Shown here: in pieces, positions 41,977 to 64,000 of the stretch | How the letters are laid out: the number at the start of each line of letters is the position of its first letter | Numbering within the stretch: position 1 is the first letter of the stretch | DNA from: Escherichia phage 172-1 | Sequence record: NC_028903.1 | DNA length: 64,000 nt | Direction: 5' to 3' (one strand) | The notes under the pieces: model-generated | Seen by the model: only the letters and a program-made list of their open reading frames with translations | Told to the model about the DNA's origin: nothing | Databases searched by the model: none | Translations under genes and position numbers: made by a program

Positions 41977-42500
41977 TTATTCTCCTAACAGCTTACGAAT
42001 TTCATTGCGGAAATTATCATACTCTTCAGGGTATTCAAACCCACATTCGAGAAGAGCGTAGTGAACAACCTTCAACAAATCCTGAGCCTTATTCTTATCC
42101 TTGTGTCGATAAGCATATTTGATCATGTTGGTTTGTTGGAAGTTCAACTGAGGGTTTGCATGGTAAAACTCAACAGGCTGAATTATCTTATTATTGGGAT
42201 TGTAGTGAGAACCTCCCACCATAGATGCTAGTGCTGGATTGCCTTGAGATGCCATTTCTAATTGCTCCGTGTGGTCATGTGAGTAGTCTACTAAAGAAGC
42301 CTTGTTACCAGTCACTTTAGGTAAAATTGCTCTAGCTATTTCTATGTACTTACCGCCATCAACATTAATTTGAAACTCCACAAGTTCATCCTGTAGTTCA
42401 TACCCTGATAAACTTGATAGCCCCTCTAGCTCATCTCTGAGAAAATCTAAAAGTTTGCTTTTAATTGCAAGAGCTTTCTTTAAAGATATCATCCCTTCAC

Positions 42501-42510
<10 letters not shown>
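41977..42510 (-). CDS. hypothetical protein (possible DUF3310-like)
   Basis: 177 aa; KYAYRHKDKNKAQDLLKVVHYAL resembles a recurrent phage motif; weak. Confidence 0.3.
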
Positions 42511-45380: not shown

Positions 45381-45881
45381 TTAAATAACGAGATCTTCTT
45401 TTCTTCTTTCATCGAAAACCTTCCTAATCTCTTGCAGAGAAACAGCTTTATAATCAATTTGCTCCATTGATGTACAGAAATATCTCCAATCATCAATTAC
45501 ATGGTTATGTGTATGAGCATAAATATTAAACTTCCCTCTCATTTCATCAGAGTGAATAGGGATATGAGTTACCCAAAACTCTTTATATTTAAAATCACCA
45601 GAGATTCTACGAAAGACTTTCATCATATCAGGGAGAAGTTCTAACCTATCATGATTCCCTAAGACCAGATGCTTCTCTCCTTTTACTTCAGCGATAATAT
45701 CAAGGGCATACTTTTCAAATACCCAATCACCAGTAAAAAAGATTTTATCACGTTTGGTTACGTGGTCAAAAGCAGCTAGAATTGCTTTGTCATGTTCTTC
45801 GATGTTTTTAAATTGCTTACGAAAACTACAGATGTTTCGATGACCTAAGTGACCATCTCCTGCAAAATAAACTTCAGCCAT
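45381..45881 (-). CDS. calcineurin-like metallophosphoesterase
   Basis: 166 aa; GDGHLGH, GDWV, GNHD and HTH metallophosphatase motifs. Confidence 0.65.
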   Translation of the reverse strand: MAEVYFAGDGHLGHRNICSFRKQFKNIEEHDKAILAAFDHVTKRDKIFFTGDWVFEKYALDIIAEVKGEKHLVLGNHDRLELLPDMMKVFRRISGDFKYKEFWVTHIPIHSDEMRGKFNIYAHTHNHVIDDWRYFCTSMEQIDYKAVSLQEIRKVFDERRKEDLVI

Positions 45882-49912: not shown

Positions 49913-50335
49913 TTATTGGTAAATCAAATCCGTAAATGCTTGATTGTCTTCTATCACATCTAACACGGTAGCTTCATAACTGTAAGCCCTAACCGCCCCG
50001 TTAACAACTATCCGAGGAGTAGGTGGAGGTGGTGCATGGTTAGCCCTAGCTTCACGAGGTTGCTCTCGTACTAAATGAGCCACAACCCTTTGGTTAGCGA
50101 CTTCTTCTCTTTCTCGAATAGCTCTCTGAATGTAAGCTAACTTCATACCCCAAACTTCTTCAAACTCTTGAGGGTGTTTATCGCTGATAACTACATACTG
50201 ACGTTCAGGAATACCAGAGCGAATCTCTGACAAAAGCTCATGGAACAAATCAAGTTCATGTTCAGTGAGATTCATTTCGATATCATCCCACTTGAGAACT
50301 AGGAATCTGTTTTGGTGTCTAGCTGGTAATGGCAT
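49913..50335 (-). CDS. hypothetical protein
   Basis: 140 aa. Confidence 0.4.
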   Translation of the reverse strand: MPLPARHQNRFLVLKWDDIEMNLTEHELDLFHELLSEIRSGIPERQYVVISDKHPQEFEEVWGMKLAYIQRAIREREEVANQRVVAHLVREQPREARANHAPPPPTPRIVVNGAVRAYSYEATVLDVIEDNQAFTDLIYQ

Positions 50336-50498
50336 TCTACTCCACCTCTACTCTAACGTAAGTTCTCTCGCCAACATCATCTTTCCAGACCCATGCCTTG
50401 GCATCTTCTTCAGACTTAAAAGCTTTCACAACGCTGTATCCACCTTCCCATTCATCACCGAACCAGCGCTGTCCTACGTAAACATATTCTTTCATTAT

Positions 50499-50774
50499 TT
50501 AACCTTTTGGGAATGGCATTAAAGATTCCATAGCAGATTTAATTTCGCTATTGATTCGAGCATCTCGATAAGAGATAAACTTACCTTTGCTATCTCGTAA
50601 CATCACATGGGTTCTAGCTGTTACGTGGGGAAGTAATGTAATACTAGTTGGGATAGTGTCAATCCCTACAGAAAATTTGTCAATAGTCTTGCTTTCACTT
50701 AACAGATAAGACCAAGTTTGCTTCGGATGGTTAGGGTATGTGTCTCGAATTTGAACCATAGCTAACTTATTCAT
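50499..50774 (-). CDS. small protein, GKFISY/PFPKG paralog family (member 2)
   Basis: 91 aa; shares ...GKFISY...PFPKG C-terminus with adjacent gene. Confidence 0.45.
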   Translation of the reverse strand: MNKLAMVQIRDTYPNHPKQTWSYLLSESKTIDKFSVGIDTIPTSITLLPHVTARTHVMLRDSKGKFISYRDARINSEIKSAMESLMPFPKG

Positions 50775-50775
50775 A

Positions 50776-51027
50776 TTAAACTCCTTTAGGGAATGGGATG
50801 AGGTTTTCTACTGCAACACGGAACTCTTTCTCTACGTTTTTATTCTTATAAGAAATGAATTTACCATCAGCCCCACGGAGGATTACGTTAGTACGAGCTG
50901 TTTTTGGGTTATGACCAATCTGGTTTGCAATAATATTAGCAATGCCGTGGTTATTGGTAAATTTCCATTTAACCATACGATTGTTAGACATTACATCAAT
51001 GATATTTACAGATTTTACAATAGACAT
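50776..51027 (-). CDS. small protein, GKFISY/PFPKG paralog family (member 1)
   Basis: 83 aa; tandem paralog. Confidence 0.45.
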   Translation of the reverse strand: MSIVKSVNIIDVMSNNRMVKWKFTNNHGIANIIANQIGHNPKTARTNVILRGADGKFISYKNKNVEKEFRVAVENLIPFPKGV

Positions 51028-51061
51028 ATTTATTACCTAAGAAGTTTAATTTGGTTTATAT

Positions 51062-51090
51062 AAAAGAAAAGGCCACCCATTTGGGTAGCC
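51062..51090 (-). terminator. rho-independent terminator
   Basis: GGCUACCC / GGGUGGCC stem followed by UUUUCUUUU on minus transcript. Confidence 0.5.
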
Positions 51091-51095
51091 TCATA

Positions 51096-51419
51096 TTACG
51101 ATGAGCTTAAAGCTCCTTTTCGCTTAGCAGCACCAGCTGCTTTTCCAGCTCGATTACCACTTTTGCCGCCGTTTGAACGGTTTGAGCTGACTGATTCAAC
51201 ACGTAAGTTGCTTGACGCATTAGAGCCTCCAGACTTGACAGCTCGTTTGTGTCCAACATCTTTACCTCTGACAGCAGCTTTTCCATCGCGCTTTTCAACG
51301 ATGCGACGTGCACGGTGGCGCTGAGCATCTCCGCTCTTGCTCCCAACGCCTGTCTCACCACGGGCAATTGCGGTACGTCTTTCTTGTGCATAATCTCTCT
51401 TTCCTACATGATCTGCCAT
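51096..51419 (-). CDS. basic low-complexity protein (possibly nucleic-acid binding)
   Basis: 107 aa, R/K/G/A-rich; own promoter and AAGGAG RBS. Confidence 0.4.
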   Translation of the reverse strand: MADHVGKRDYAQERRTAIARGETGVGSKSGDAQRHRARRIVEKRDGKAAVRGKDVGHKRAVKSGGSNASSNLRVESVSSNRSNGGKSGNRAGKAAGAAKRKGALSSS

Positions 51420-51455
51420 TTAAAACTCCTTAATATATCAGTGTACACTAAGGAG

Positions 51456-51466
51456 TATACATTATA
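51456..51466 (-). promoter_or_regulatory. phage promoter core TATAATGTATA (leftward)
   Basis: 37 nt upstream of ATG 51419. Confidence 0.5.
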
Positions 51467-51475
51467 AGTTGCTGT

Positions 51476-52213
51476 TTAAGCTTTCTTTTCCATTGCTTTA
51501 ACAATAGCTTTACAGAAACCAGAACGAACAATGTCATCTGATTCGCCGTCTACAATCTCAGCGAACTCATACAGATCATGTTCATCAATAAAGTTAGTAG
51601 CCCAAGTAAGACCACTCTCACGACCACGCATATCATGCTGGTTAGTGTCACCCATGCAGAACAATTGAGAGGTTTCTCCCAATCGAGTCATGATTGAGAA
51701 GGCTTCATCTTTAGTGGTGTTCTGGAACTCATCTACGATAACAATAGCATCGTTGAAAGAACGACCACGGAGATACTCCAGAGGTACGAACTCAATATTA
51801 CTGTTACCGAGCTGGCATTCATAGAACCCTTTACCATATCGCTGAGTAATAACATCAATGATAGGCATCAAATATGGTTCAAACTTCTCACGCATCCCTC
51901 CCGGAAGCAACCCAAGAGAATTACCCATGCCGACCGAAGGGCGACTCAGGATAATCTTCTGAATCTTACCACTCTTCAGTGCATCGATAACCGTGGAAGT
52001 GATTACAAAGGTCTTACCACAGCCCGCAGGAGCGTCTGTGAACACAACTTGTTTAGTCTTGATAGCATTGAGCAGTTCAGACTGGAACTGGTTCTGAGGG
52101 ACTACAGGCTTTGCTAAAACCACCTCTTCAAACTCGCGCTTACCCTTACGAGTGACAAGTACTTCCCGACGAAGGTCTTTCCGTGATTCTTTCCGTGATT
52201 GACGACGACTCAT
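51476..52213 (-). CDS. phoH: PhoH-like ATPase
   Basis: 245 aa; Walker A PAGCGKTF, IVDEFQN, and GDTNQ motifs. Confidence 0.8.
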   Translation of the reverse strand: MSRRQSRKESRKDLRREVLVTRKGKREFEEVVLAKPVVPQNQFQSELLNAIKTKQVVFTDAPAGCGKTFVITSTVIDALKSGKIQKIILSRPSVGMGNSLGLLPGGMREKFEPYLMPIIDVITQRYGKGFYECQLGNSNIEFVPLEYLRGRSFNDAIVIVDEFQNTTKDEAFSIMTRLGETSQLFCMGDTNQHDMRGRESGLTWATNFIDEHDLYEFAEIVDGESDDIVRSGFCKAIVKAMEKKA

Positions 52214-52422
52214 TTACGCTCTCCAATTTCTTCGTAATGACATTCAGTAGTTAAACAATCTTTACAGATTGCTGTATAAACCCTGACGTTAGTAAATCGT
52301 TTGTTCTTCCCTTTGGTTGGAGAGCCTTTGGCAAGCTCTCTGATAACCTTGTTACTTAAATGAAGGTTTGTCCCTTCACATCTAGAGCACTTCACCACAA
52401 TGTCCATTCGGTAAGAGACCAC
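52210..52422 (-). CDS. small zinc-finger protein
   Basis: 70 aa; CSRC...CKDC...CH cluster. Confidence 0.35.
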   Translation of the reverse strand: MVSYRMDIVVKCSRCEGTNLHLSNKVIRELAKGSPTKGKNKRFTNVRVYTAICKDCLTTECHYEEIGERK

Positions 52423-52588
52423 AGAGAGTCACCTATGTGGGCATTGTCATTCCTGATGAGGTCTTTGATTTTATCAACATCAGTTAAGTGAGTCACATTC
52501 AAAATATCCTCAACATCTGGGGCATATTTAAATATGGCAACAATACTGTTGTGATCTTCAGCATATCTTTCTAGAACATAAACTACGC

Positions 52589-52912
52589 TCATGCGAAGTT
52601 AACCTCTTTATGAAGTCTGTAAACAGCTGTCGCCATACAAGCAACAGCTTCGTTATGTGGGAGATGCATCCCTGTAGAACCATCCCAATCTTTGAACTCA
52701 TTGTCAAAGACTCCGGTAGGCTCTGGATACAAGGCTTGCAACTCAACCAAATCGTTAGCAACTTGTTGCCATTTATCATCAGACCAGATAGGGTCATCCA
52801 ACCAGTAATACAAATAGGAATGGATGATCAATTGCCTTCTGTGCCGATTGATTACTTCAGCGGGACTTATCTCACTTCCATTTGAAGTCCTAAATGTATT
52901 ACTGTCAATCAT
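52589..52912 (-). CDS. small protein resembling NAD-dependent ligase domain Ia
   Basis: 107 aa; HSYLYYWLDDPIWSDDKW...LQALYPEP resembles the LigA N-terminal motif; weak. Confidence 0.3.
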   Translation of the reverse strand: MIDSNTFRTSNGSEISPAEVINRHRRQLIIHSYLYYWLDDPIWSDDKWQQVANDLVELQALYPEPTGVFDNEFKDWDGSTGMHLPHNEAVACMATAVYRLHKEVNFA

Positions 52913-53157
52913 TTCACAACCTTAAATTTGAATGTTGTTGGGTGATAATAATGCAACCTGTTAATGGTGTGCTTTGTTTCAAGATATATCCTACAAGAGT
53001 GACACATCACATGATTCAGACCAGTTACAGGATTAGGTTTAAAGTTGGCGATAGGCTTCTCTTTCTTACAGAAGCTACAGACTTTCTTTTCCATCTTTTC
53101 TCCAGTGGTCAACGAACTGCTGAAACACTTTACGGTCAAATGTGAAATTACGAGCAA
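52909..53157 (-). CDS. zinc-ribbon protein
   Basis: 82 aa; CSFC...CHSC pairs. Confidence 0.35.
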   Translation of the reverse strand: MLVISHLTVKCFSSSLTTGEKMEKKVCSFCKKEKPIANFKPNPVTGLNHVMCHSCRIYLETKHTINRLHYYHPTTFKFKVVK

Positions 53158-53454
53158 TTCCGCATTCTCTAAAAGTGGCAGGCATATAATCTACATCACC
53201 TTCAGATGTATGACCATAGACTTGAATAAGTTTCTTAATCTTATCCTTCTCTCTTCGAGGAAGCATTCTAAATGCCTCCTGAATATCTGTAATATGTTTT
53301 ATCTTCATCAGAAATTCCTGCTAATCCTCTGAGTTGTGGGAACAGCAATATTCACATACTCCACAACAAGGGCAAATTTCTACACTTGGGTCATATGCAT
53401 CATCAACTGTCATCCCACACTTGGTGCAGAACACATCATCATCTTCTTCCAATA

Positions 53455-54111
53455 TTAATTCTCCAAAGTTTTCTTCAGAGCTGCCCACGAGATTGGGTAG
53501 AGTTTAGCCATCTCTTCATCCAGAGATTGAGCAAACACTCGAACTTCATACTGAGCATGGGAGGATAGTCGCTGACGACACAACTCAAACCAGCCATACA
53601 AAGAACCAGTCCACACCCACTCAGTGATCATTCCCTGAGGAAGAACAAATCGGGCTTGTTCTGGTGCAACGAACTCAATCAACTTGTCATATGCTGCTAG
53701 AGAAGCTTCATATGCATCGTTAATCAACATTAATGCTTCAGCTCGCTCTCCATTGATGAGTTGAACCCCTGAACCTGCATGGAGGTCCGAAGGTCTCGCA
53801 AAAATCTCTTTAGGGATGAAGACTTCAACTGCTCCGTCTTTATACCTCCGGGACATTTCGTTCCACGAAAACCCAATTTGGTGCTTGCCCAACTGTCTCG
53901 CAATTGCGATAGGTGCTTTGCATCGGAAACTGACTTGTGGGTGTCGGAATGGAGTAACATGCTTCTCTCTTGCGAGGAAGTTGATGAGACGTTCATCACG
54001 TTCATTTAAATCACCTTCACGGGTTACGCCAAAGGAAACTCGAGCTGCGTTTACTACGCTACGATCACTTCCCATAGCTTCGATTAATGTTGCTTGTAAT
54101 TGTTCATTCAT
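53455..54111 (-). CDS. thyX: flavin-dependent thymidylate synthase ThyX homolog (variant active-site motif)
   Basis: 218 aa; recalled ThyX-like core (VVNAARVSFG, HVTPFRH, KAPIAIARQ, SHAQ); RHR-x7-S motif replaced by KHQ-x8-S. Confidence 0.7.
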   Translation of the reverse strand: MNEQLQATLIEAMGSDRSVVNAARVSFGVTREGDLNERDERLINFLAREKHVTPFRHPQVSFRCKAPIAIARQLGKHQIGFSWNEMSRRYKDGAVEVFIPKEIFARPSDLHAGSGVQLINGERAEALMLINDAYEASLAAYDKLIEFVAPEQARFVLPQGMITEWVWTGSLYGWFELCRQRLSSHAQYEVRVFAQSLDEEMAKLYPISWAALKKTLEN

Positions 54112-54126
54112 CCGTGAATTTCCTTA

Positions 54127-54336
54127 TTAATATTCTTTTACATAATAAACCACTAAGGTTCCCATCTCTGACAATGTTGATTTATGTAAGCTTACTTTAC
54201 TATAAATCTTTGGGGCCATCTTAAGAGCCTTCTTAAAACGGCGAGCATCTTTACGAGTAGCAAAGTGCTCTGTAACAGGTATAGCCGGGTCTTGGTAGAG
54301 GTAATATACCACCGTCCAATATTTTTTCATAATCAA
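54127..54336 (-). CDS. small protein, TRxxAR/YY paralog family (member 4)
   Basis: 69 aa; ATRKDARRFKKALK core and C-terminal YY-type ending. Confidence 0.45.
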   Translation of the reverse strand: MIMKKYWTVVYYLYQDPAIPVTEHFATRKDARRFKKALKMAPKIYSKVSLHKSTLSEMGTLVVYYVKEY

Positions 54337-54605
54337 ACACCTAGGGCAGTAGTTAAGAATGCTTTCAGGTTTGCTTCGGTCTGCATACCAGAGAGACTAT
54401 AGTGTGCACCACTATTACGGTCAGGTACAACGAAAGCAGGGATGCTTCTTACACCATACTTAACAGCTTGTTCACGACCATCACCTTCAAGGATGTTAAT
54501 CTCTTCTACTTCTACATCGAACTCCTTAACAACCTTCTCAAAGGTAGGAGCCATTGCTTTACATGGAGCACACTGATCACTATAAAACTTAATCACTTTA
54601 GACAT
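54333..54605 (-). CDS. thioredoxin/glutaredoxin-like protein
   Basis: Start at ATG 54603-54605 (MSKVIKFYSDQCAPCK...); CxxC active site. Confidence 0.55.
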   Translation of the reverse strand: MSKVIKFYSDQCAPCKAMAPTFEKVVKEFDVEVEEINILEGDGREQAVKYGVRSIPAFVVPDRNSGAHYSLSGMQTEANLKAFLTTALGV

Positions 54606-54795
54606 TCTATTCCTTGTTAATAAACAGGTTGATATGACGTTGGGTAGCAGGAACAACAATAAAAGATTTATACTGACCTTTTGCTAAGTCATGAGCAATC
54701 TTCTTTGTCTGACCAAGACCCATCACACAGCCACTAACAATAATGGCGTGTGCTTGCAACTCTTCAGGGAGTTTTAGTTTCATTCTTCAGGTTCC

Positions 54796-54981
54796 TTACA
54801 GCATAGCAAGAATGATAATAAGAGGTAATGTTATAGCGAAATTAATAAGAACAGCGCTGCCTAGCTTGATAGCTTTAACATCCTCTTCTGATGGGTTTTC
54901 TTTAATTGCTAAATTTCGAGCTTTATATATAACAGTACCAATTATTAACGACCACACGGCCCACACAATCAGTGAAATCAT
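54796..54981 (-). CDS. small two-TM membrane protein
   Basis: 61 aa; two hydrophobic helices. Confidence 0.4.
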   Translation of the reverse strand: MISLIVWAVWSLIIGTVIYKARNLAIKENPSEEDVKAIKLGSAVLINFAITLPLIIILAML

Positions 54982-54990
54982 ATCAAACCC

Positions 54991-55170
54991 TTATGCAGTC
55001 AGGAGGTGAAGCAGGAATGGGATAACAACAGCTACGACAACCATGATGGTTGATGCTGTTTGAATCTCACCTTTCTTGTCAGGAGTTTCTTCAATAAGCT
55101 TGCCAGAAGCCCAATAGATACCACCACCAATAAAGACAGCCCAAATACCCCATACGATTGCTGATAACAT
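54991..55170 (-). CDS. small two-TM membrane protein (paralog of 54796..54981; not in ORF track)
   Basis: 59 aa ORF found by hand (MLSAIVWGIWAVFIGGGIYWASGKLIEETPDKK...); same architecture as neighbour. Confidence 0.35.
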   Translation of the reverse strand: MLSAIVWGIWAVFIGGGIYWASGKLIEETPDKKGEIQTASTIMVVVAVVIPFLLHLLTA

Positions 55171-55231
55171 ATATCTATATCCTTATAAATAAGTTCGCCC
55201 CACCTCGGGTTAGGAGACAGGGCGGAGGTTT

Positions 55232-55795
55232 TTAGTAAGACACATCGCCACTTGAGTGGGACATGTTGCTCTTGACGAAGTAGCAATACTTGCCAAGACC
55301 TTCATTAATTTCTTGAAGCATACTCTGATCAACTGGATAAGTGGCTAAATCACCATCAAACTCATCCATCTTCTCAATAATACACATCAAGGTCATGCAC
55401 ATATCAGAGAGCATACCGTCCATATCTAGGTCAGCATTACCCTCTGAGAACCAAGCATGGGAGAGATAATTGGCTGCTGTGGCGTCCACTTTAACACAGT
55501 GGTAACGCATACGTTCAGCAATACGATCTCCTACTTGTCGTGCGTAATCTTCCAGCTCATCAAACATACCATGAACACCCTGAAATCCTGCACCAGAGAC
55601 GTTCCAATGGTAGTTTTTAGCTTTGATATGCAAGAGTTCCATGTTAGCTTGTAAGCAGCTCAGGATGTGTTCTAGGCTGTTTCCACTAATCATACCCTGC
55701 ATTGTTTCAAGGCGAGAGATTGAAAGCTCGGACCGGTCTAACATATTGTATTCGACACGACCAATATCAGGTAAATCAAAGACATTCTTATGCAT
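55232..55795 (-). CDS. dps: Dps-like ferritin (DNA-binding ferritin-like protein)
   Basis: Start at ATG 55793-55795 with GGAGAT RBS; NYHWNVSGAGFQGVH (H-x11-H) and GDRIAE (D-x3-E) match recalled Dps ferroxidase-centre spacing. Confidence 0.6.
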   Translation of the reverse strand: MHKNVFDLPDIGRVEYNMLDRSELSISRLETMQGMISGNSLEHILSCLQANMELLHIKAKNYHWNVSGAGFQGVHGMFDELEDYARQVGDRIAERMRYHCVKVDATAANYLSHAWFSEGNADLDMDGMLSDMCMTLMCIIEKMDEFDGDLATYPVDQSMLQEINEGLGKYCYFVKSNMSHSSGDVSY

Positions 55796-56117
55796 TTGGG
55801 TTATCTCCATCAAGTTCAACTGAATTAGCAACGTTACGTTCGATGTTTGCCATCACTTGCTGCGTTATGACAATACAGTTCTGTGGGTCTACTGACTTAG
55901 AACGCCCCATTTCAGGGTCATACACCTTAACTCGCTTAGCAGTTGAACCTGTAACCTGAAGAACCTTCAACAGATATCCCTGATTACCAATAGACCAAGC
56001 AACAACATCACGATTCTTGATAAAGCGACCAAGCATATCACGATGATAAAACTGTTGCATCACCTTGGATTTTGTAATCTCTTCAGTGGGCGGGGCCACT
56101 TTACTCAAATCTAACAT
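55788..56117 (-). CDS. hypothetical protein
   Basis: 109 aa; preceded by promoter motif. Confidence 0.45.
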   Translation of the reverse strand: MLDLSKVAPPTEEITKSKVMQQFYHRDMLGRFIKNRDVVAWSIGNQGYLLKVLQVTGSTAKRVKVYDPEMGRSKSVDPQNCIVITQQVMANIERNVANSVELDGDNPNA

Positions 56118-56155
56118 AACTCTCTCCTGTAAAAATACAAATTCTTATTGTACTC

Positions 56156-56188
56156 TATATACATTTGAGAGTTACCATATCTACTACC
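56156..56188 (-). promoter_or_regulatory. phage promoter (GGTAGTAG-N14-AAATGTATATA, leftward)
   Basis: Same upstream octamer and spacing as 44944..44976; 39 nt upstream of ATG 56117. Confidence 0.5.
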
Positions 56189-56190
56189 AA

Positions 56191-56400
56191 TCAGTAGTAA
56201 ACATTCCGAGATAGCATACAAGTACTTTCTGAGAATTCAACCCAACGGTGTATGCTAACATGCTCAACCGTACCGACCAGAGCTTTCATATTCTTTTTAG
56301 CAATACGAGCCTCTTTGCGAGTGTTAAACAGTTTGATATTATCTTTTCCCAAGTGTTGCTCGTGATTCCAAACAACACGAATAGCCCACATCTTTTTCAT
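56191..56400 (-). CDS. small protein, TRxxAR/YY paralog family (member 3)
   Basis: 69 aa; NTRKEARIAKKNMK core, ends VYY. Confidence 0.45.
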   Translation of the reverse strand: MKKMWAIRVVWNHEQHLGKDNIKLFNTRKEARIAKKNMKALVGTVEHVSIHRWVEFSESTCMLSRNVYY

Positions 56401-56609
56401 CAGTAGTGTACCTTTCCGCTGATATAAACACGACCAGAGGAATACTCTCTGGCCTTATGAATACTGATGCTCTTGATCATATCTATATTAAACATGGACT
56501 TTTTAAAATCTCGAGCTTGTTGGCGAGTAGGTAGTGCAGTCATAGTCATACCGCCTGATGCCCACTTAATCTTTGCTAACCAAAACTGTCTCATAGTGAT
56601 TGGTCTCAT
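56400..56609 (-). CDS. small protein, TRxxAR/YY paralog family (member 2)
   Basis: 69 aa; PTRQQARDFKKSMF core, ends VHY. Confidence 0.45.
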   Translation of the reverse strand: MRPITMRQFWLAKIKWASGGMTMTALPTRQQARDFKKSMFNIDMIKSISIHKAREYSSGRVYISGKVHY

Positions 56610-56806
56610 TAATAATAAACCTTGCTGTTGGCAAAAAGAGCACCTTCGTTATTCACAATAGCTTTTCCTATTGTAACCTTATTGAGTCTAAAAGTAGACT
56701 TGTATTGGTTTTTGACCCTACGGGCGTGTTCTCGAGTATTAACAAAATCTACAGCTACTAACTCTCCAGTCGTGTTATCATGTACACGAACAATCCACTT
56801 TTTCAT
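56609..56806 (-). CDS. small protein, TRxxAR/YY paralog family (member 1)
   Basis: 65 aa; NTREHARRVKNQYK core, ends VYY. Confidence 0.45.
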   Translation of the reverse strand: MKKWIVRVHDNTTGELVAVDFVNTREHARRVKNQYKSTFRLNKVTIGKAIVNNEGALFANSKVYY

Positions 56807-57009
56807 TTTACTAAACCCTTCATAAAGTTATAAAGATCATTAGAGGCTTTACCCCATTCAAGGTGCTTCTTATCCATATAGCTCTTACATGCTTCTTTAC
56901 TACTTTCGACGCATATATCAAATTGATGACATGCTCGACCAAATGTCATAGCTTTTAATTGAACCTCGGTAGTCAAACCTTTCAGTTCTTGGAACTCTTC
57001 TTCAGTCAT
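56803..57009 (-). CDS. hypothetical protein
   Basis: 68 aa. Confidence 0.35.
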   Translation of the reverse strand: MTEEEFQELKGLTTEVQLKAMTFGRACHQFDICVESSKEACKSYMDKKHLEWGKASNDLYNFMKGLVK

Positions 57010-57543
57010 TTACACACCCTTAGATGCAACAACACCTTCAGAGTTATTATAACGACCCTTCACTGCATAGGAATGTTCCCCTGCATGAGAGTGCTCAAAC
57101 ATCACCATCTGACCAACACGCATACCAGCACGAACTCGTAAGCTATGATGCTTGGTTACGTTGTGGAATTCAAACGTCAGCTTACTGCTATTAAATCCAG
57201 CATCAGCCCATCCAGCATGTAGGTGGTTCAAACCACAACGAGCCATAGATGAACGAAGAACAAACAGGCTTGAGATATTATCTGGAAGATTAAACTCCTC
57301 CATGGAGTGAGCCAAGAAGAACTGACCCGGAGTGATAACCAAACCCTCTTCAGGAATCTTTACTTCCTTCCACTGAAGATTTTCTTTCGCATCAATATCA
57401 ACGATGCCATCAGCCTGTTCTTCAACAAGGATAGTATCACCAATACGGATATCCACACTAGCAGCGTTAACATACTTATGCTCCGCATCCAGATAGCCAT
57501 TGTCAATTACATCGTGCAGTTCAACACTTCCTAGTAAACTCAT
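57010..57543 (-). CDS. dcd: dCTP deaminase (dUTPase-fold)
   Basis: 177 aa; ASVDIRIG, RSSMARCGL, AGWADAGF and YNNSEGVVASK align with the recalled E. coli Dcd sequence. Confidence 0.7.
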   Translation of the reverse strand: MSLLGSVELHDVIDNGYLDAEHKYVNAASVDIRIGDTILVEEQADGIVDIDAKENLQWKEVKIPEEGLVITPGQFFLAHSMEEFNLPDNISSLFVLRSSMARCGLNHLHAGWADAGFNSSKLTFEFHNVTKHHSLRVRAGMRVGQMVMFEHSHAGEHSYAVKGRYNNSEGVVASKGV

Positions 57544-57552
57544 TCTTATTCC

Positions 57553-58908
57553 TTAGTTATTTGTTTCCATGTCAAAAGAGATTCCACGACCCGCTTCATC
57601 GGCAAACCGAACTGTACGGGTTTGAGGCTGCAATACTTCAGGGTTATCAGCAACAAAGCGATCAGCGAGACTGCGGCTGACGGTCTCAGCTAATTCACCA
57701 TGAGAAGGGATATTAAGATCGGCGAGATTATCAACCACATCTTGGGCCACGTCTTCATCAGTCCATACAGCCCTAACAGGTGCGTTGAAACTCTGACCAG
57801 AGAACTGGTGACGGCTAACAGTCAAACCATTTGATTGACCATTAGAACGTCTAGACAACCACTGCTCAAATGAATCGCCAGTAACACCAAGAGCTTCTTC
57901 AAAAGATGTTCTACGAGTAGAGCTTAGATTTCGTGCTTCGTTTGCTCGACGTCTTGCAGGGGCTACAAACACCCCTTCAACTGCATTGTGCCGATTAGGT
58001 TCATCTTCTCGACCAAGGAGATCTCCTCCTGTATTAGTTGTTAAGTTTGTCAACCCTTCAGACCAATATGCACGAATCTGGCTAGAGCCATGAACACTTG
58101 ACATTAACTGAATCTCTTCGTAAGGTATTCCAAAGAATAGACTCATGTCTCGGTTAACACAGTATTGAGCACTTGTTGTATCCTCAATAAGAGAAACCTG
58201 ACCTAATCCATTAACCAGATGACTAACTGGCTGAGGTGTAGGAAGGTATCGAGTTTGGGCCATATATTGATATGCAACAGATGGAGCTGAGAATCTTAAC
58301 ACTTGTGAATTAGGCCACTTTTTGTGAACGTATCTGATTTCACGACTAGAAACAACCACAGGGCAAGGAGCGGTCATAGCTAAATATCCATGAGGAGTCA
58401 TGAATAGGTTGTCAAGAGTCATCGCACCACGGCACATCATAGGAAAATTATCCAATACCTCTTCAATAGAAGTAGGATAATTAAACATGAATTGAATGCG
58501 GGTTCCATTCCACTGAAACTCAATAATATCAGTGAATGTTAATTGAGAACCCCCAGCATATGATTCGTTTGTAGCTTCAGCAAGAAGGGATGCATACTCG
58601 ATATCTTGTGATTCAAGCCACTCTTTCACATTGCTTTCAATCTCTCGTCCAAGAGCTTGCCAATGATCAACTGTAGTGAAAGTATTTTGAGTCCCTGGCG
58701 TCTGTCCTCTGACAACGAAGATATCAATATCGTGAGGTGCTATGTTATTAAGCACGGCATCACGAACAGCCCCACCAGTAATGATAGGGCAAATGCCGTC
58801 TGGAATCAAGTTGTTGTTAATCAACTGTTCAATGAAGTGACGACCAACAGTGATATCAGGTTGTTGAGCAACCTTATCTTCAATTCGGTTAATCGGGATA
58901 ACAATCAT
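57553..58908 (-). CDS. nucleotidyltransferase, tRNA-NT/poly(A) polymerase head-domain family
   Basis: Start at ATG 58906-58908; ITGGAVRDAVLNNIAPHDIDIFV = GGxVRD...DxD pol-beta signature; C-terminal ~300 aa unrecognised. Confidence 0.55.
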   Translation of the reverse strand: MIVIPINRIEDKVAQQPDITVGRHFIEQLINNNLIPDGICPIITGGAVRDAVLNNIAPHDIDIFVVRGQTPGTQNTFTTVDHWQALGREIESNVKEWLESQDIEYASLLAEATNESYAGGSQLTFTDIIEFQWNGTRIQFMFNYPTSIEEVLDNFPMMCRGAMTLDNLFMTPHGYLAMTAPCPVVVSSREIRYVHKKWPNSQVLRFSAPSVAYQYMAQTRYLPTPQPVSHLVNGLGQVSLIEDTTSAQYCVNRDMSLFFGIPYEEIQLMSSVHGSSQIRAYWSEGLTNLTTNTGGDLLGREDEPNRHNAVEGVFVAPARRRANEARNLSSTRRTSFEEALGVTGDSFEQWLSRRSNGQSNGLTVSRHQFSGQSFNAPVRAVWTDEDVAQDVVDNLADLNIPSHGELAETVSRSLADRFVADNPEVLQPQTRTVRFADEAGRGISFDMETNN

Positions 58909-58909
58909 T

Positions 58910-59464
58910 TTACATTTTCCAATATAATGAAGGTGGGTCGTAAGGGTCAAATCCCGTGAGTTCACACAAGTATTTATAAACCTTAACGGTTAAGTTAACG
59001 TCCTGTTCACAGTAAGTAAACATATCTTCAGTGAAAGCATCCCATGCTTCCTCTTGCTCACCGTAGTCTCCTTTAAGTTCCTCTAAGAACTCACCCCATT
59101 GCTTCAAACCATGACCTCTTGGGCCATGTCTAGGGTCACCTTTCGGATACTCAGGACTGTCACCAATACGGTCAGGTTTAAGATATCGACTAAGACACAA
59201 GGTGTCGAAGACGTTAAAACGATAGTCGATCAGATTGGGATACATCTTCTTCAGAGCACAAAGGTCGAAGTCAATAATATTATGACCTACGAGCACATCA
59301 GCTTCTGTAAGTTTACGAATCCCATCTTCAATTTGGTGAGGCCGATAGCCCCACCTTTCACCAGTTTCAACATCGAAGATGTAAATACACCACACTTTAG
59401 TTATGTCATCGTACAGTGCATTACTCTCGATATCAAATGCAAACACTTTCTTTTTCTTTACCAC
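58910..59464 (-). CDS. DnaQ-like 3'-5' exonuclease (stand-alone proofreading domain)
   Basis: 184 aa; Exo I FDIES, Exo II HNIIDFD, Exo III YCEQDV motifs. Confidence 0.7.
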
Positions 59465-61248
59465 GGTGAAGCTCCATCTGCTTGATTGACGAGAGAAGCT
59501 GCATCCTCTCCGTTAGTCAAAACGAATGGATTATCTTCATCAACTTCAAAGTCTTCCCTTTCTACAAGTCTACCGGTTTCGCTGATATACTTAGTATAAC
59601 AGACACCCGTCTGACCATAGTTACGTTCTTTCAGTAATCGAATGACTGAGAGGTTCTTAGCTAAGCCGTCAGCTTGCTTATCACGCTCAAAGCCAATGAT
59701 ACACTGACACCAACGCATAAGAGAACGAGAGCCAGTGAACTGTACTTCACGTACCTGTCCACCTTCTTCGTGAGGAGCACCACCTGCCGGAGCATTAAGG
59801 TGAGATAGCACGAAAGCGGTAAAGTCTAATTCTTTACACATACCAGCAAGCTCGGAAGCAATCTTACTGATTTCAGTGTTAATCTCTGAAGGTGTTAAAT
59901 GAGATACCAGAGCGGTAATGTTATCAAGAATGATGAACTTACACTGGTTTTCAACTACCCAGAAACGGATACACTGTTTAATATCTTCCCATTCGTTCTG
60001 CCCAAAGTTGTCATACAAGAAGAATTTGTCTGCATAACGAAGTGCTTCATTACGCAAATCCTCCTCGTCATATTCAACATCGGGTCGGTGGAAAGGAATT
60101 GATGCTGACTTACCAGCGATGTTCTTAACAGACATGCCTACCTTCTCTTCCAAGAAGAAGCCACCCCCATTAAAGCCATGCTCTAAGCACAGATGAGCAA
60201 CCAGTTCGTGAGCAATTAGTGTTTTACCACTACCTACACCACCACCGATGGCTACTACCTCTCCCCATCGAATACCGAAGGTCATCTCATTAAGAGTTTT
60301 CCACGGATATGGAATACCCCACTCCGCTTTCTTCAGAGCATCATCAAGGCAATCAAAGATTGTTACAGCACCAGCAGGAGATTCCCGCTTTGCTGAATAC
60401 TTGAGAATGTTGAATAACTCTTGACCACGACCAGACAGAAGCATGTCATTCGCATCCTTAATCTCTTTCTCCACACCGTTGTATGGGAAAGTTCCTTTAG
60501 GAATACGAGCAAACTTGACATGAGGGAATAAAGAACGACCTTTTGTTAAAGCTATCTCACCTGCATCGTCATTGTCCATGCAGAGCACAACCTCCTCAAA
60601 ACCATTTACGAAGTCTCGATTACGAGACAACACAGAAGAGATTGAACCTGCACCGAACGGTAAAGAAACACATGCTGGCTTAATATTTGTTGCATTTGTA
60701 AAAGCTGTAAGGACATGGAAACCAGACATACAAGATAGCGGGTCTTCAAAAATAAACAGCTTCTTGTTGTACACATCTCCACGTTGAGCTTGTGCCATAC
60801 CAAATAAGTCTGCTTCTTTCACACTGCCAACGTAATAAAACTTCTTACTATCTAGCAGCTTAACCTCGTAACCAACAATGTTTCCATCACGTTCACGAGG
60901 AAAGAAGTAGCTGTCTGGAGTCTGACCATCAGTCTGACTTAGACCAATGCGACACTCAAAACGCTCTGATACAGCTTTAGGGATTAAACGTCGAGTAAGT
61001 TCACCCTGAGGAAGCTCTAAGCAATCATCTAAGACTTCTCTCAATTCTTCAGGGGATAACTCTTTCTTCTCGTTTGGAGTGGGTGTAGTGCCCTTTTCGA
61101 ACACTTCGTAATTCCCACAACGGTTACAACTTCCCCACTCCTCACCTGTCTCTTCGTTACGGAAGAGAATCATGTGGTTGTGGGTTTTATCACGACCATG
61201 AGAGATACATTCCTTACAACCTGTGTCTCCCAAAATGATCTTTGACAT
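59458..61248 (-). CDS. T7 gp4-like primase-helicase
   Basis: 596 aa; N-terminal Cys4 zinc ribbon, TOPRIM region, Walker [10 protein letters not shown] and Walker B ILDN helicase motifs. Confidence 0.85.
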
Positions 61249-61274: not shown

Positions 61275-61478
61275 TTAGTAGAACGAACGAATTTCATCCC
61301 ACACTTGTTCCTGTTCTTTCCTATAAAAAGAAAGTTGGGTCTTGAACATCTCCACTGATGATTCAAAGTTTTTAGATTGTGCAGCTTCAACGAAACGTTC
61401 ATGTCGGTTGATTTTGCACCGTAGCATTAAATACTTGGCTTCAAGTCTCCGAAGAGCCTGTCTTTTCTCAAGATTCAC
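61275..61478 (-). CDS. hypothetical protein
   Basis: 67 aa. Confidence 0.3.
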   Translation of the reverse strand: MNLEKRQALRRLEAKYLMLRCKINRHERFVEAAQSKNFESSVEMFKTQLSFYRKEQEQVWDEIRSFY

Positions 61479-61887
61479 TTTTCAGATACTCTGACCAGTC
61501 GCCAGATTCAACCAGAACGTCTTGTTCTTCGTCAATGTGATAAATCCAAGCGATAACAGTTTCACCTGAGTCCAGCTTAACGGCAATCTGGGTGCGTTGA
61601 TAGAAGCTATCTTCAGGGCTACGTTTGTTGTAACCTTCCAGTCGGTCATATGGACCTTCCAGACCTGCTTTGTCAGTAGCAAACACTTCTACACGAACAG
61701 GCTTATTGTTATTGCTGTGTGCGAGAGAGATGCTTGGGAAGTAGGAACCACCATAACGGAACAGATCGAAGTTGTCTTCAGTCCAACCTTCACCGATTGA
61801 CTTAGCACCAGCTCGGTCATTAACTAAATAGTTAGCTTGACCACGACGAAGAGAACCATAAGTTGCTACGTAAATTACTTCTGACAT
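61468..61887 (-). CDS. AIG2/GGACT-like gamma-glutamyl cyclotransferase-fold protein
   Basis: 139 aa; N-terminus VIYVATYGSLRRGQANY matches the YGTLKRGxxNH signature of GGACT/AIG2-like enzymes. Confidence 0.55.
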   Translation of the reverse strand: MSEVIYVATYGSLRRGQANYLVNDRAGAKSIGEGWTEDNFDLFRYGGSYFPSISLAHSNNNKPVRVEVFATDKAGLEGPYDRLEGYNKRSPEDSFYQRTQIAVKLDSGETVIAWIYHIDEEQDVLVESGDWSEYLKSES

Positions 61888-61956
61888 TATCTATACCTTT
61901 GTTGGTTTGTTTAGTTTATCCGAACTAGCCTCCTCTTTCGAAGAGGCTAAAGCAGA

Positions 61957-62142
61957 TTACTCTGTAATAAAGATTTTGATTACACCGCAGATTACTTCAT
62001 CATTAAAAGAAGCAACAACTTCTTTATCCTGACAGAACTCTATCTTATTGTTATAAGAGTTGAAGTAATCAGCGTCAATATCCATTGCTCGCATTTCGCC
62101 AGCTGCATTGGTATCTTTAAACAGAACTTTATATTTATTCAT
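61957..62142 (-). CDS. hypothetical protein
   Basis: 61 aa. Confidence 0.3.
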   Translation of the reverse strand: MNKYKVLFKDTNAAGEMRAMDIDADYFNSYNNKIEFCQDKEVVASFNDEVICGVIKIFITE

Positions 62143-62387
62143 AGATAAGTTACTCCCTTGTCTTGTTGTGCTTCAGTGATGATACGTTCTACGCATTCCA
62201 TAGAGTATTTATCACCACGTTTTAGGAAAGTCACAATTGCGGAGAACTGATTACCAATCATTCGCTGATTAGTAATACCCCACTCCTCACACAAATTACG
62301 CAACTCTTTACGAGAGCCTACAATAAGAGGCTCTTTTTGTTCCATCATTCCATTTTGTACTAGATCTTCCAATGAAAACATATCCAT
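62139..62387 (-). CDS. hypothetical protein
   Basis: 82 aa. Confidence 0.35.
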   Translation of the reverse strand: MDMFSLEDLVQNGMMEQKEPLIVGSRKELRNLCEEWGITNQRMIGNQFSAIVTFLKRGDKYSMECVERIITEAQQDKGVTYL

Positions 62388-62393
62388 ATATCC

Positions 62394-63590
62394 TTAGTAG
62401 TTTACAACAGTGCCATCATTCAGGGTAAGGCTATTAATCTGCAACACACGACCAAGCTGACGATCACTAATTGGTGCGTTCCATCCAGAGCGGTAGAAGT
62501 TACGACCACAGAAGAACAAGATCACATTACTTGCTACAGTCGAACCGTTTTCAGGATGCTTGATGTTAGCGATATAATAGCCACGACGTAGATTACGACG
62601 GGTTACCGGGTTGATCTCTAACCCTTGTTCTTCAACTTGCATTGTTTCAGGAACAGGCTCCGAAGACTCTTCAGCAACTGGCTCAGCTGACAATGCGAAG
62701 TTCTCGTCATCTGCTGATTCAGCAAATTCTTCTTCCACTTCTTCAACAGGCAGTTCGTAAGCAACGCGGTAGTCAGGATCAACACCAGAGAAGCTCTTAA
62801 CAAACTCAACAATATTATGAGTGTAAGTTTCTAGAGTTGTTCCAGTCAGGCCCGGAGCTGTATTAACTTCCAGAACCCAAGCGTTAGTACCTTTGCTAAT
62901 CAGGTCAACAGCACCGAAGTTCAAACCCAGAGCAGATACAGCTTTGTGAGCTTGAATCAGAACTTGATCAGGAGGCGCTTCAGTGAAGGAGTTAGAATAA
63001 ACCCAACCAGTGTGATGGTTACGAATATCTTCACGATATGTTGACAGATCGCGATAACCGTTACGACGAATCTTCTTCTGAACGTAAGTGATAACGCCTT
63101 CGAACACATGAACACGCCATTCACGACGTGGGCCTTGAATACCTTTGGTATATAGAGGGGCACGGGAAATACCTTCCGTCGGAAGACGAACAATAATACC
63201 TTCACCGGAGTGCCCATTTAGGATTCCACGCTCATAAACAATTTCGTTCTGGTTCCAATCTGAAGCCACACTCTGACTTACGGTATACTCTACAGTAGAT
63301 ACTCCAGCAGCTTCCAAAGTTTGAAAAGCTGTAACCTTATTAGCTGCTCGGTTCAATGCCACTACAGAGTTCAATACAGTTGCCCCACCAAAGAAAGAAT
63401 CGTTGTATCGACGGTTTCCGTAGTTGACAACAATATCACCAACCCGAGAACGATAACGAGAACCCTCTGATACCAGAGACATTACGTTAGCGTTTAAGCG
63501 GAGTTCCTGAATCTTAGTGTTAATTGCAGAAGTAAGTTCACGAACTGAATCAGAAGGGCCATAAGGAAGAACACGGATACGAGTAGTCAT
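62394..63590 (-). CDS. ATP-grasp ligase (RimK/GshB-like) with C-terminal extension
   Basis: 398 aa; GHSGEGIIVRLP, REWRVHVFEGV, and WVLEVNTAPGL motifs typical of ATP-grasp amide ligases; acidic linker plus ~90 aa C-terminal domain. Confidence 0.65.
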   Translation of the reverse strand: MTTRIRVLPYGPSDSVRELTSAINTKIQELRLNANVMSLVSEGSRYRSRVGDIVVNYGNRRYNDSFFGGATVLNSVVALNRAANKVTAFQTLEAAGVSTVEYTVSQSVASDWNQNEIVYERGILNGHSGEGIIVRLPTEGISRAPLYTKGIQGPRREWRVHVFEGVITYVQKKIRRNGYRDLSTYREDIRNHHTGWVYSNSFTEAPPDQVLIQAHKAVSALGLNFGAVDLISKGTNAWVLEVNTAPGLTGTTLETYTHNIVEFVKSFSGVDPDYRVAYELPVEEVEEEFAESADDENFALSAEPVAEESSEPVPETMQVEEQGLEINPVTRRNLRRGYYIANIKHPENGSTVASNVILFFCGRNFYRSGWNAPISDRQLGRVLQINSLTLNDGTVVNY

Positions 63591-63592
63591 TG

Positions 63593-63817
63593 TTAGATAC
63601 CTTTAAGTTTAAGAATTTCGTTACGAGTTTTTTGAATCTGAGCTTCAATTTCGAAGTAGTCGTTGAACGCATCGTTCTCTACTTCATCGGATGGTGCATC
63701 AATCAGACCGAAAGCGAACGGATACAGCTTTCGCTGCTCCGTTACTAATTCGATATGAACTCCTATGTAATACTGTAGGAGAGTGATCTTCGGTTTCTTA
63801 GGAACCAGATTTGACAT
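63593..63817 (-). CDS. hypothetical protein
   Basis: 74 aa, 3 nt upstream of ATP-grasp gene. Confidence 0.35.
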   Translation of the reverse strand: MSNLVPKKPKITLLQYYIGVHIELVTEQRKLYPFAFGLIDAPSDEVENDAFNDYFEIEAQIQKTRNEILKLKGI

Positions 63818-64000
63818 GAGGTTCTACCTTAATGCCTTTGATTTTTACATAATCAGCAAGTACGTTATTGATCACCGTTGGGAAAGGAACCTCAACCTGT
63901 GTCTCAAGTACTTGACCAATACCAGCTTGCATCCACTTCTGGATTGCACGAAGGTTGTCACATCCTGTGCTCGTCATCGGGATACGTCGAGTAGTTACAA
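63798..64000 (-). CDS. partial ORF (C-terminal end only; continues beyond window)
   Basis: Open minus-strand frame from window edge to stop at 63798-63800; ends ...GIKVEPHVKSGS. Confidence 0.3.
   Translation of the reverse strand, partial: VTTRRIPMTSTGCDNLRAIQKWMQAGIGQVLETQVEVPFPTVINNVLADYVKIKGIKVEPHVKSGS

Follow-up and report, generated by a model that had tools for sequence, protein, structure and literature searches.

The stretch of DNA analysed here, called the window in the following, comprises 64,000 nucleotides of Escherichia phage 172-1 (NC_028903.1) and contains on its minus strand thyX, a gene for a flavin-dependent thymidylate synthase (ThyX) with an unusual active-site motif. The gene, the motif and a putative ribosome binding signal are located as follows:

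53455..54111, minus strand: thyX, flavin-dependent thymidylate synthase of 218 amino acids, member of the variant-motif (KHx...SRRY) subfamily (open reading frame, profile matches, AlphaFold2 model, annotated relatives)
53842..53886, minus strand: variant ThyX motif K76-H77-Q78-I-G-F-S-W-N-E85-M-S87-R88-R89-Y90, which corresponds to RHR-X7-S-G-R-Y (aligned with ThyX chains from the PDB)
54120..54125, minus strand: Shine-Dalgarno-like AAGGAA, 8 nt 5' of the thyX ATG (the minus strand reads ...TAATAAGGAAATTCACGGATG)

A preliminary description of the locus, made from the sequence alone, had recognised a ThyX homologue, and this assignment is borne out. All segments that it quoted are present in the open reading frame (ORF), which contains SVVNAARVSFGV, KHVTPFRH, CKAPIAIARQ, SSHAQY, and GKHQIGFSWNEMSRRY. 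The protein matches the Pfam family PF02511 (Thy1) with 150 bits (cut-off 24.8; E 8.8e-44), its residues 8-206 covering positions 1-190 of the 191 profile positions, and it passes the NCBIfam equivalog TIGR02170 (128.8 bits, cut-off 87.9). Thy1 is the only family that was matched in the Pfam scan, with no match to the ThyA family (Thymidylat_synt), and the PHROG families matched are thymidylate synthase families, including PHROG 85. An AlphaFold2 model based on 136 homologues is confident (mean predicted local distance difference test score 93.8, predicted template modelling score 0.88) and has the full ThyX fold. The top matches of this model in a Foldseek search are all T. maritima (Thermotoga maritima) ThyX, with a template modelling (TM) score of 0.82, a probability of 1.00, and 34% identity.

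Across bases 50000-60000 the window shares 98% identity with Escherichia phage NJ01 and 92-97% with dozens of further E. coli phages; it comes from a podovirus of the phiEco32 type, genus Kuravirus (Gordonclarkvirinae). Proteins with 97-99% identity carry the label 'thymidylate synthase thyX/thy1' in phiEco32 (2008) and in many relatives. The gene is thus already known, with a public thyX annotation since 2008, and its product is an ordinary phage ThyX. The records of NJ01, the closest relative (NC_018835.1 / JX867715.1), have no feature over thyX, and several of their product names are doubtful; for example, an ORF of 66 aa is called 'isoleucyl-tRNA synthetase' and one of 67 aa 'putative ABC transporter'. 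In comparison with phage Bas91, thyX has 23 synonymous and three non-synonymous differences, and the resulting ratio of non-synonymous to synonymous substitution rates (dN/dS) of 0.034 reveals purifying selection. From this ratio and the AAGGAA site the gene looks intact and expressed.

The ThyX signature R-H-R-X7-S of Myllykallio 2002, as it is quoted in PMC2826268, is not literally present in the phage protein. HMMER alignments place K76-H77-Q78 (codons AAG CAC CAA at 53878..53886, minus strand) opposite R78-H79-R80 of T. maritima TM0449 and opposite the RHR of ThyX from T. thermophilus (Thermus thermophilus). The aligned stretch of the phage protein is APIAIARQLGKHQIGFSWNEMSRRY, and the APIxxARQ block that precedes KHQ is free of gaps in both alignments. 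The replacement of both RHR arginines, which had been proposed in the preliminary description, is thus confirmed by the alignment to solved ThyX chains. The spacing had been misjudged: F81 is a one-residue insertion, which changes the motif to K-H-Q-X8-S instead of X7. A further change had gone unnoticed, namely that the residue after the motif serine is Arg88 (SRRY), while canonical ThyX has Gly or Gln at this position (SGRY / SQRY).

The variant motif is not restricted to this group of phages. Among the 120 closest homologues in a collection of 5.8 billion proteins, which have 54-93% identity, 119 contain KHQ. When 1.84 billion representatives of 50%-identity clusters were searched exhaustively, 6950 matches were obtained at E <= 0.001; in the best 150 of these (38-63% identity) a pattern search recognised the motif in 122 sequences, of which none has RHR. 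KHQ is the most frequent form (68), followed by KHK (16), RHT (9), and RHQ (6), and smaller numbers of sequences have T, H, E, M, V, N, S, or C as the third residue. A search with a 26-member profile of the subfamily detected at least 7998 clusters at 90% identity with E <= 1e-20. In an alignment of 136 diverse members position 76 is Lys (119) or Arg (17), position 77 is His in 124 sequences (Ser and Tyr occur in some members of the subfamily), and position 78 is Gln in 92 sequences and Arg in only two. The second half of the motif is more uniform, with E85 in 134, S87 in 135, R88 in 127, R89 in 134, and Y90 in 135 members. Five residues are invariant, i.e., Q73, E151, R154, R181, and Q187, and conservation reaches 97% or more at H57, E85, S87, R89, and Y90.

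Among isolated phages, the variant pattern occurs for example in roseophage SIO1 (KHK-X7-SRRY), the Rheinheimera Barba phages (KHK-X8-SRRY), and a group of phages of about 52 kb that infect E. coli, Erwinia, and Staphylococcus, and a K-Y...WNESSRRY form is found in phages of Geobacillus, Bacillus, and Streptomyces. KHQ is thus no oddity of one phage; it represents the consensus motif of a very large ThyX subfamily that is found in phages and in bacteria. The motif of 2002 is too narrow for the ThyX family, because deviation from it is the rule in at least 7998 clusters. The filter of Stern et al. (2010) dropped sequences with more than two residues dissimilar to the motif, and a filter of this kind may have discarded members of the KHx/SRRY clade.

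Gly or Gln follows the serine in all ten true-RHR sequences that were read (T. maritima, T. thermophilus, L5 gp48, Borrelia, Alteromonas R7M, PaMx25, S-RIM44, Hardycor2, OlgasClover, and HyRo). The two actinophages OlgasClover and HyRo have RHR-X8-SGRY, which is a plausible intermediate between the canonical and the variant motif. Where the third arginine has been lost, an arginine has thus been gained behind the serine, and this suggests that a basic side chain has been relocated within one active-site loop, as a compensation and not as the creation of a new pocket. Two proteins were considered as experimentally studied members of the subfamily and turned out to be canonical. Mycobacteriophage L5 gp48, reportedly a characterised phage ThyX, has RHR-X7-SQRY and is uninformative in this respect, and the Borrelia lp54 ThyX, which is said to have been functionally tested, has RHR-X7-SGCY. 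According to its title, a study by Liu and Yang from 2004 reportedly deals with a bacterial ThyX that has non-standard 'distinctive motifs' and an intein; these motifs may correspond to the KHx/SRRY pattern.

The residues that bind deoxyuridine monophosphate (dUMP) are present in the phage protein, namely R72, Q73, E85, S87, R89, R154, R181, and Q187, together with the lid residue Tyr90. Their T. maritima equivalents are R74, Q75, E86, S88, R90, R147, R174, Q180, and the lid Tyr91, and all positions are invariant or at least 90% conserved in the 136 subfamily members. H57 is found at the position of the folate-stacking H53, and K76 is a conservative replacement of R78. In general, the phage protein has the same fold and length as T. 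maritima TM0449 (PDB 1O26) and the T. thermophilus enzyme (PDB 6J61; E 6.7e-31). The residues shared with the T. maritima enzyme also include H79 and N85; the differences are R78 to Lys, R80 to Gln, G89 to Arg, and the inserted residue.

The functions of these positions can be taken from solved structures. In the reduced T. maritima enzyme the guanidinium group of R78 faces N1/C2=O of reduced flavin adenine dinucleotide (FADH-; PMC11940539), and methylene transfer is driven by S88, R90, and Y91 (PMC8316439). In PolB, a methylase of the ThyX family, the first RHR arginine (R86) forms a hydrogen bond with the ribose 3'-OH, the phosphate is contacted by R82, H83, S96', A97', R98', and R166', and the base by R193, R98', and Q206, while the third RHR arginine is absent from the list of nucleotide contacts (PMC5003785). 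For the Mycobacterium tuberculosis enzyme, a section of PMC12004180 describes that N3-deprotonated dUMP is recognised via Arg199, which corresponds to T. maritima R174. To judge from the alignment, the residues that read the uracil are those that never vary in the subfamily. Because they are invariant and the lysine retains the charge of R78, the change of RHR is not located where an altered base specificity would be expected.

Members of the subfamily are also encoded by bacteria. A scan of one genome per prokaryotic species with an alignment of eight sequences as query revealed 79 loci, many of them with the motif KHQVGLVWNEVSRRY. The evidence for a chromosomal context was restricted to three loci with Pfam-confirmed neighbours (L003, L005, and L013). 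In a complete Spirochaetia chromosome of 1.79 Mb (L003) thyX overlaps the stop codon of a short-chain dehydrogenase/reductase gene and is translationally coupled to it. Genes for 2-oxoacid dehydrogenase E2/E3 and for citrate synthase precede this thyX, and pyrD, a pyrF/pyrE fusion, pyrB, and a dihydroorotase-like gene (pyrC) are oriented towards it in a convergent arrangement. On a Chloroflexota contig (L005) the gene follows the genes for pyruvate dehydrogenase E3, E1-alpha, E1-beta, and E2, and in a member of the Nitrospinaceae (L013) it adjoins ispH and an AcrB pump gene. Some KHQ-type bacterial genes thus stand in housekeeping neighbourhoods. Two further loci (L012 and L023) look chromosomal by ORF content alone, and five others (L020, L028, L031, L037, and L087) were rejected as chromosomal loci, because they represent prophages or mis-binned phage contigs.

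In two relatives an intein is inserted into the variant motif itself, i.e., KHQSGF-intein-SWNERS (P0122) and RHVVGT-intein-CRSETSRRY (P0187). Inteins typically occupy conserved active centres of enzymes of nucleotide metabolism (PMC5050341). Four ThyX relatives (P0122, P0187, P0220, and P0229) define two intein hot spots. The borders at the motif are KHQSGF/C...HN/SWNE and RHVVGT/C...HN/CRSE, and the second hot spot is located directly before the TPF(R)H segment (EHEHM/C and REGHW/C).

A variant thyX was also found on a Staphylococcus aureus plasmid (L085, NZ_CP113048.1; also in Enterococcus faecium, CP081503.1), directly 3' of the trimethoprim-resistance gene dfrE. The encoded protein has the form K-Y-V-I-G...WNESSRRY and is 37% identical to the window protein. 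The two plasmid genes might jointly counter antifolates, because ThyX leaves tetrahydrofolate unoxidised.

In the window, thyX is part of a long leftward block with genes for DNA polymerase, a protein with a nicotinamide adenine dinucleotide (NAD)-ligase domain, PhoH, thioredoxin, deoxycytidine triphosphate (dCTP) deaminase, nucleotidyltransferase, and primase/helicase. The genes that are of importance for nucleotide metabolism or for the alternatives discussed below are:

57010..57543, minus strand: dCTP deaminase (Dcd), 177 amino acids (Pfam DCD, E 3.5e-34; TIGR02274, 107.7 bits, cut-off 92.8; PHROG 1663)
54333..54659, minus strand: thioredoxin-fold protein, directly 5' of thyX (Pfam Thioredoxin, E 2e-13; 'thioredoxin domain' beside thyX in Bas91)
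57553..58965, minus strand: protein of 470 amino acids, directly 3' of dcd, 'nucleotidyltransferase' in relatives (weak match to the head domain of poly(A) polymerases / CCA-adding enzymes, 18.2 bits, cut-off 23)
45381..45881, minus strand: metallophosphatase (Pfam Metallophos, 25.7 bits, cut-off 21.5)
41977..42510, minus strand: ORF that matches DUF3310 alone in Pfam; its positional counterpart in relatives is labelled 'dNMP kinase' (deoxynucleoside monophosphate kinase)

The enzymatic context given in the preliminary description therefore has to be revised in one point: the profile matches confirm the dCTP deaminase and the metallophosphatase, and a phosphatase of the haloacid dehalogenase (HAD) type was not found among the window ORFs scanned. 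The gene dcd is on the same strand and in the same early/middle gene block as thyX, at a distance of about 3 kb. The thioredoxin-fold neighbour in this nucleotide-metabolism block is not needed for ThyX chemistry.

Most likely, thyX encodes a functional dUMP-to-dTMP (deoxythymidine monophosphate) synthase of a large variant-motif subfamily, and it acts together with Dcd to lift the supply of deoxythymidine triphosphate (dTTP). Conservation and gene context argue for catalytic activity. By homology, the enzyme would be a homotetramer with flavin adenine dinucleotide (FAD) at the subunit interfaces. The flavin would be reduced by reduced nicotinamide adenine dinucleotide phosphate (NADPH), the methylene group of methylene tetrahydrofolate would be transferred to flavin N5 and further to C5 of dUMP, and a hydride from the reduced flavin would yield dTMP and tetrahydrofolate. 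The positive charge of R78, which is directed at the ribose 3'-OH and at flavin N1/C2=O, would be retained in K76. Most members keep H77, and the third arginine would be dispensable, with Gln in this protein and Lys, Thr, His, Val, or Glu in others. R88, beside the serine of the catalytic loop, probably takes over binding of a phosphate or of a charge.

The proposed pathway would begin with Dcd, which converts dCTP to a deoxyuridine nucleotide. Deoxyuridine triphosphate (dUTP) would then be turned into dUMP by the host Dut, or dUMP would be formed directly if Dcd is bifunctional. ThyX would convert dUMP to dTMP while reduced folate is neither consumed nor oxidised, and the kinase that is labelled dNMP kinase in relatives, together with host kinases, would complete the route to dTTP. 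A shift of the pool from deoxycytidine to deoxythymidine nucleotides would make sense, because the guanine plus cytosine (GC) content of the window is 42.0%, while that of E. coli is about 51%. For an Escherichia phage this is an ordinary result, namely a thymidylate synthase that supplies dTTP.

Similar strategies have been described for other viruses. PBCV-1, with the ThyX A674R, has a lower GC content than its host, and a section of PMC10142491 describes that a cytosine-nucleotide deaminase and ThyX push the pool towards dTTP. In Halorubrum virus Hardycor2 thyX and dcd are adjacent and the ThyX has the canonical RHR-X7-SQRY, whereas the two genes are about 3 kb apart in Kuravirus.

Several observations weigh against the reading as a functional dTMP synthase. 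RHR has been reported to be necessary for the activity of M. tuberculosis ThyX (a passage in PMC2386288, citing Ulmer 2008), so that activity without RHR is inferred from conservation and context. Solved structures come no closer than 34% identity and have RHR throughout, and a literature search revealed no assay and no solved structure for any KHx/SRRY member. Bacteria with chromosomal KHQ-type genes may also carry thyA. The Gordonclarkvirinae are markedly resistant to restriction-modification systems without having a known modification pathway (PMC11990801), the numbers of EcoRI, EcoRV, and EcoKI sites in the window are near expectation, and an unrecognised DNA modification is possible in this subfamily of phages.

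Among the alternatives, the one that survives best is nevertheless improbable. It also regards the protein as a normal dTMP synthase, and it explains the motif by another cofactor preference or reductant coupling, e.g., looser binding of FAD or the use of another reductant in place of NADPH, as an adaptation to phages or to oligotrophic marine cells. The divergence is confined to the positions of the RHR triad while the residues that contact the nucleotide are invariant, and the third RHR arginine of T. maritima ThyX binds the FAD phosphates. In addition, redoxin genes are found next to thyX, i.e., the thioredoxin-fold gene in Kuravirus and a glutaredoxin gene in Rheinheimera phage Barba1A. 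However, the folate-stacking H57 and the flavin-N1 cation K76 are kept, and the neighbouring redoxins may act in other processes, such as the reduction of ribonucleotides.

The preliminary description had suggested that KHQ could indicate an altered substrate specificity, for example for a modified pyrimidine. The enzyme would then have a changed chemistry or substrate, e.g., methylation of deoxycytidine monophosphate (dCMP) or uridine monophosphate (UMP), or release of 5-hydroxymethyl-dUMP, and it would feed a non-canonical pyrimidine that explains the restriction resistance. We regard this as quite improbable. There is a precedent in the family, the C5-methylase PolB (PDB 4P5A) from polyoxin biosynthesis, whose substrate range has been broadened to both UMP and dUMP; it methylates UMP, so the specificity of ThyX-family enzymes can evolve, and the KHx/SRRY subfamily is biochemically uncharacterised. 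However, the shift in PolB came about via Tyr124 and Tyr126 in the specific Loop 1 and Loop 2, its nucleotide contacts follow the canonical numbering, and its gene is part of a nucleoside-antibiotic cluster (PMC5003785). The similarity of the window ThyX to ordinary ThyX (E 6.7e-31) exceeds its similarity to PolB (E 1.6e-16), and the context of its gene is phage replication and not antibiotic biosynthesis. The invariant, or nearly invariant, residues that read the uracil and the lack of a listed nucleotide contact of the third arginine also argue against altered specificity, as does the coupling of the loss of this arginine to the gain of R88. As KHQ is common to thousands of unrelated phages and to bacteria, including housekeeping loci, it cannot mark a pathway that is specific for Kuravirus.

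The resistance to restriction itself requires an explanation. Its describers suspect a covalent modification that is tied to the dcd/nucleotidyltransferase locus (PMC11990801), the nucleotidyltransferase gene has been flagged by the BASEL authors as a possible player in DNA modification, and a cluster of amidoligase, ATP-grasp, glutamine amidotransferase (GATase), and gamma-glutamyl cyclotransferase (GGCT) genes adjoins the replication genes. Avoidance of recognition sites was considered as the cause of the resistance, and it is ruled out for EcoRI, EcoRV, and EcoKI, because the sites are present: the window contains 13 EcoRI, 29 EcoRV, 10 EcoKI, and 104 EcoP1 sites, which is about the expected numbers. 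Other sites are strongly avoided. CCWGG occurs five times versus about 72 expected, GATC 124 times versus 237-294 expected, and PstI, KpnI, SacI, and SphI sites are absent versus about 10 expected for each. Such an avoidance pattern is expected for DNA that is open to attack by restriction enzymes, and it implies exposure to restriction. Furthermore, the phiEco32 terminal repeats have been located with the help of restriction profiles and subclones, and nanopore sequencing has been applied to YF01 (PMC9965538). The mapping and subcloning of phiEco32 DNA and the avoidance of several sites do not support an altered specificity.

The gene content of the close relative Bas91 points in the same direction. 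Its complete annotation contains no ThyA-like hydroxymethylase, second thymidylate synthase, base kinase, DNA glycosyltransferase, or dUTPase, and no partners of ThyX in base modification (kinase, transferase, glycosylase, or hydroxymethylase) are annotated; it lists a dNMP kinase, Dcd, thioredoxin, a nucleotidyltransferase, and the amidoligase / GATase / ATP-grasp / GGCT cluster. The established phage route to modified pyrimidines is via hydroxymethylases of the ThyA family (T4 gp42, SPO1 gp29, and others). The fold of these enzymes is unrelated to that of the window ThyX, and none of them is annotated in the complete Bas91 genome. A literature search revealed nothing decisive on restriction digests of Kuravirus DNA or on the biochemistry of such phage ThyX proteins.

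A more specific version, in which the DNA of Gordonclarkvirinae contains a pyrimidine modification and the KHQ ThyX supplies the non-canonical precursor together with Dcd, the nucleotidyltransferase, and/or the amidoligase cluster, is very improbable. The precursor could be 5-hydroxymethyl-dUMP, which would be released from the exocyclic-methylene intermediate, instead of or besides dTMP. If true, this modification would explain the broad resistance to restriction-modification systems. DNA with deoxyuridine, which has been suggested for the Gordonclarkvirinae in the BASEL paper, is also unlikely, because a strongly conserved dTMP synthase is retained.

The least probable explanation, a degenerate or weakly active ThyX with a non-catalytic or regulatory role (binding of nucleotide or flavin, or inhibition of a host enzyme), could invoke the changes at two of the three motif positions that M. 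tuberculosis ThyX reportedly requires and the Ser or Tyr at the central position in some members, but it is contradicted by the dN/dS value, the invariance of every other catalytic or substrate residue in 136 diverse members, the inteins in the motif, which are typical of active centres, the chromosomal copies beside pyrimidine biosynthesis genes, and the confident model with the full ThyX fold.

The preferred reading, a functional dTMP synthase, has consequences beyond this phage. The RHR-X7-S signature does not fit a very large branch of ThyX proteins, most of them viral and marine, and filters that are based on the motif can miss or mis-flag its members. The swap of arginines, i.e., loss of the third arginine and gain of SRRY, represents a testable hypothesis about flavin or nucleotide binding, which bears on the design of ThyX inhibitors. 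The conserved ThyX also argues against the published idea that thymidine is replaced by deoxyuridine in the Gordonclarkvirinae, and it narrows the search for the cause of their resistance.

Some minor observations were made in the surroundings of thyX. The conserved cluster that adjoins primase/helicase extends from 61300 to 64000 of the window (61300..64000, minus strand) and past its end, and it is also present at two other loci (L001, 31462..39830; L100, 383..8757). The labels of its genes include gamma-glutamyl cyclotransferase, RimK-like ATP-grasp ('S6 glutaminyl transferase'), GlmS-like glutamine amidotransferase, amidoligase, and COOH-NH2 ligase. The ORF at 62394..63590, which encodes 398 amino acids, has no Pfam match at E <= 0.001.

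Four small ORFs of 65-69 amino acids on the minus strand are apparent paralogues (54127..54336, 56191..56400, 56400..56609, and 56609..56806). Common to them are MKK.W at the N-terminus, (T/N)R..AR..KK in the middle, and ...VYY or VHY at the C-terminus. Three of them are arranged in tandem and one is located just 5' of thyX, and they are annotated as 'hypothetical' in relatives. Another tandem pair of paralogues on the minus strand, at 50499..50774 and 50776..51027, encodes proteins of 91 and 83 amino acids with ...KGKFISY... or DGKFISY, which end with ...PFPKG or PFPKGV. A third tandem arrangement, at 54796..54981 and 54991..55170 on the minus strand, encodes two small membrane proteins of about 60 amino acids that start with M(I/L)S.IVW..W.

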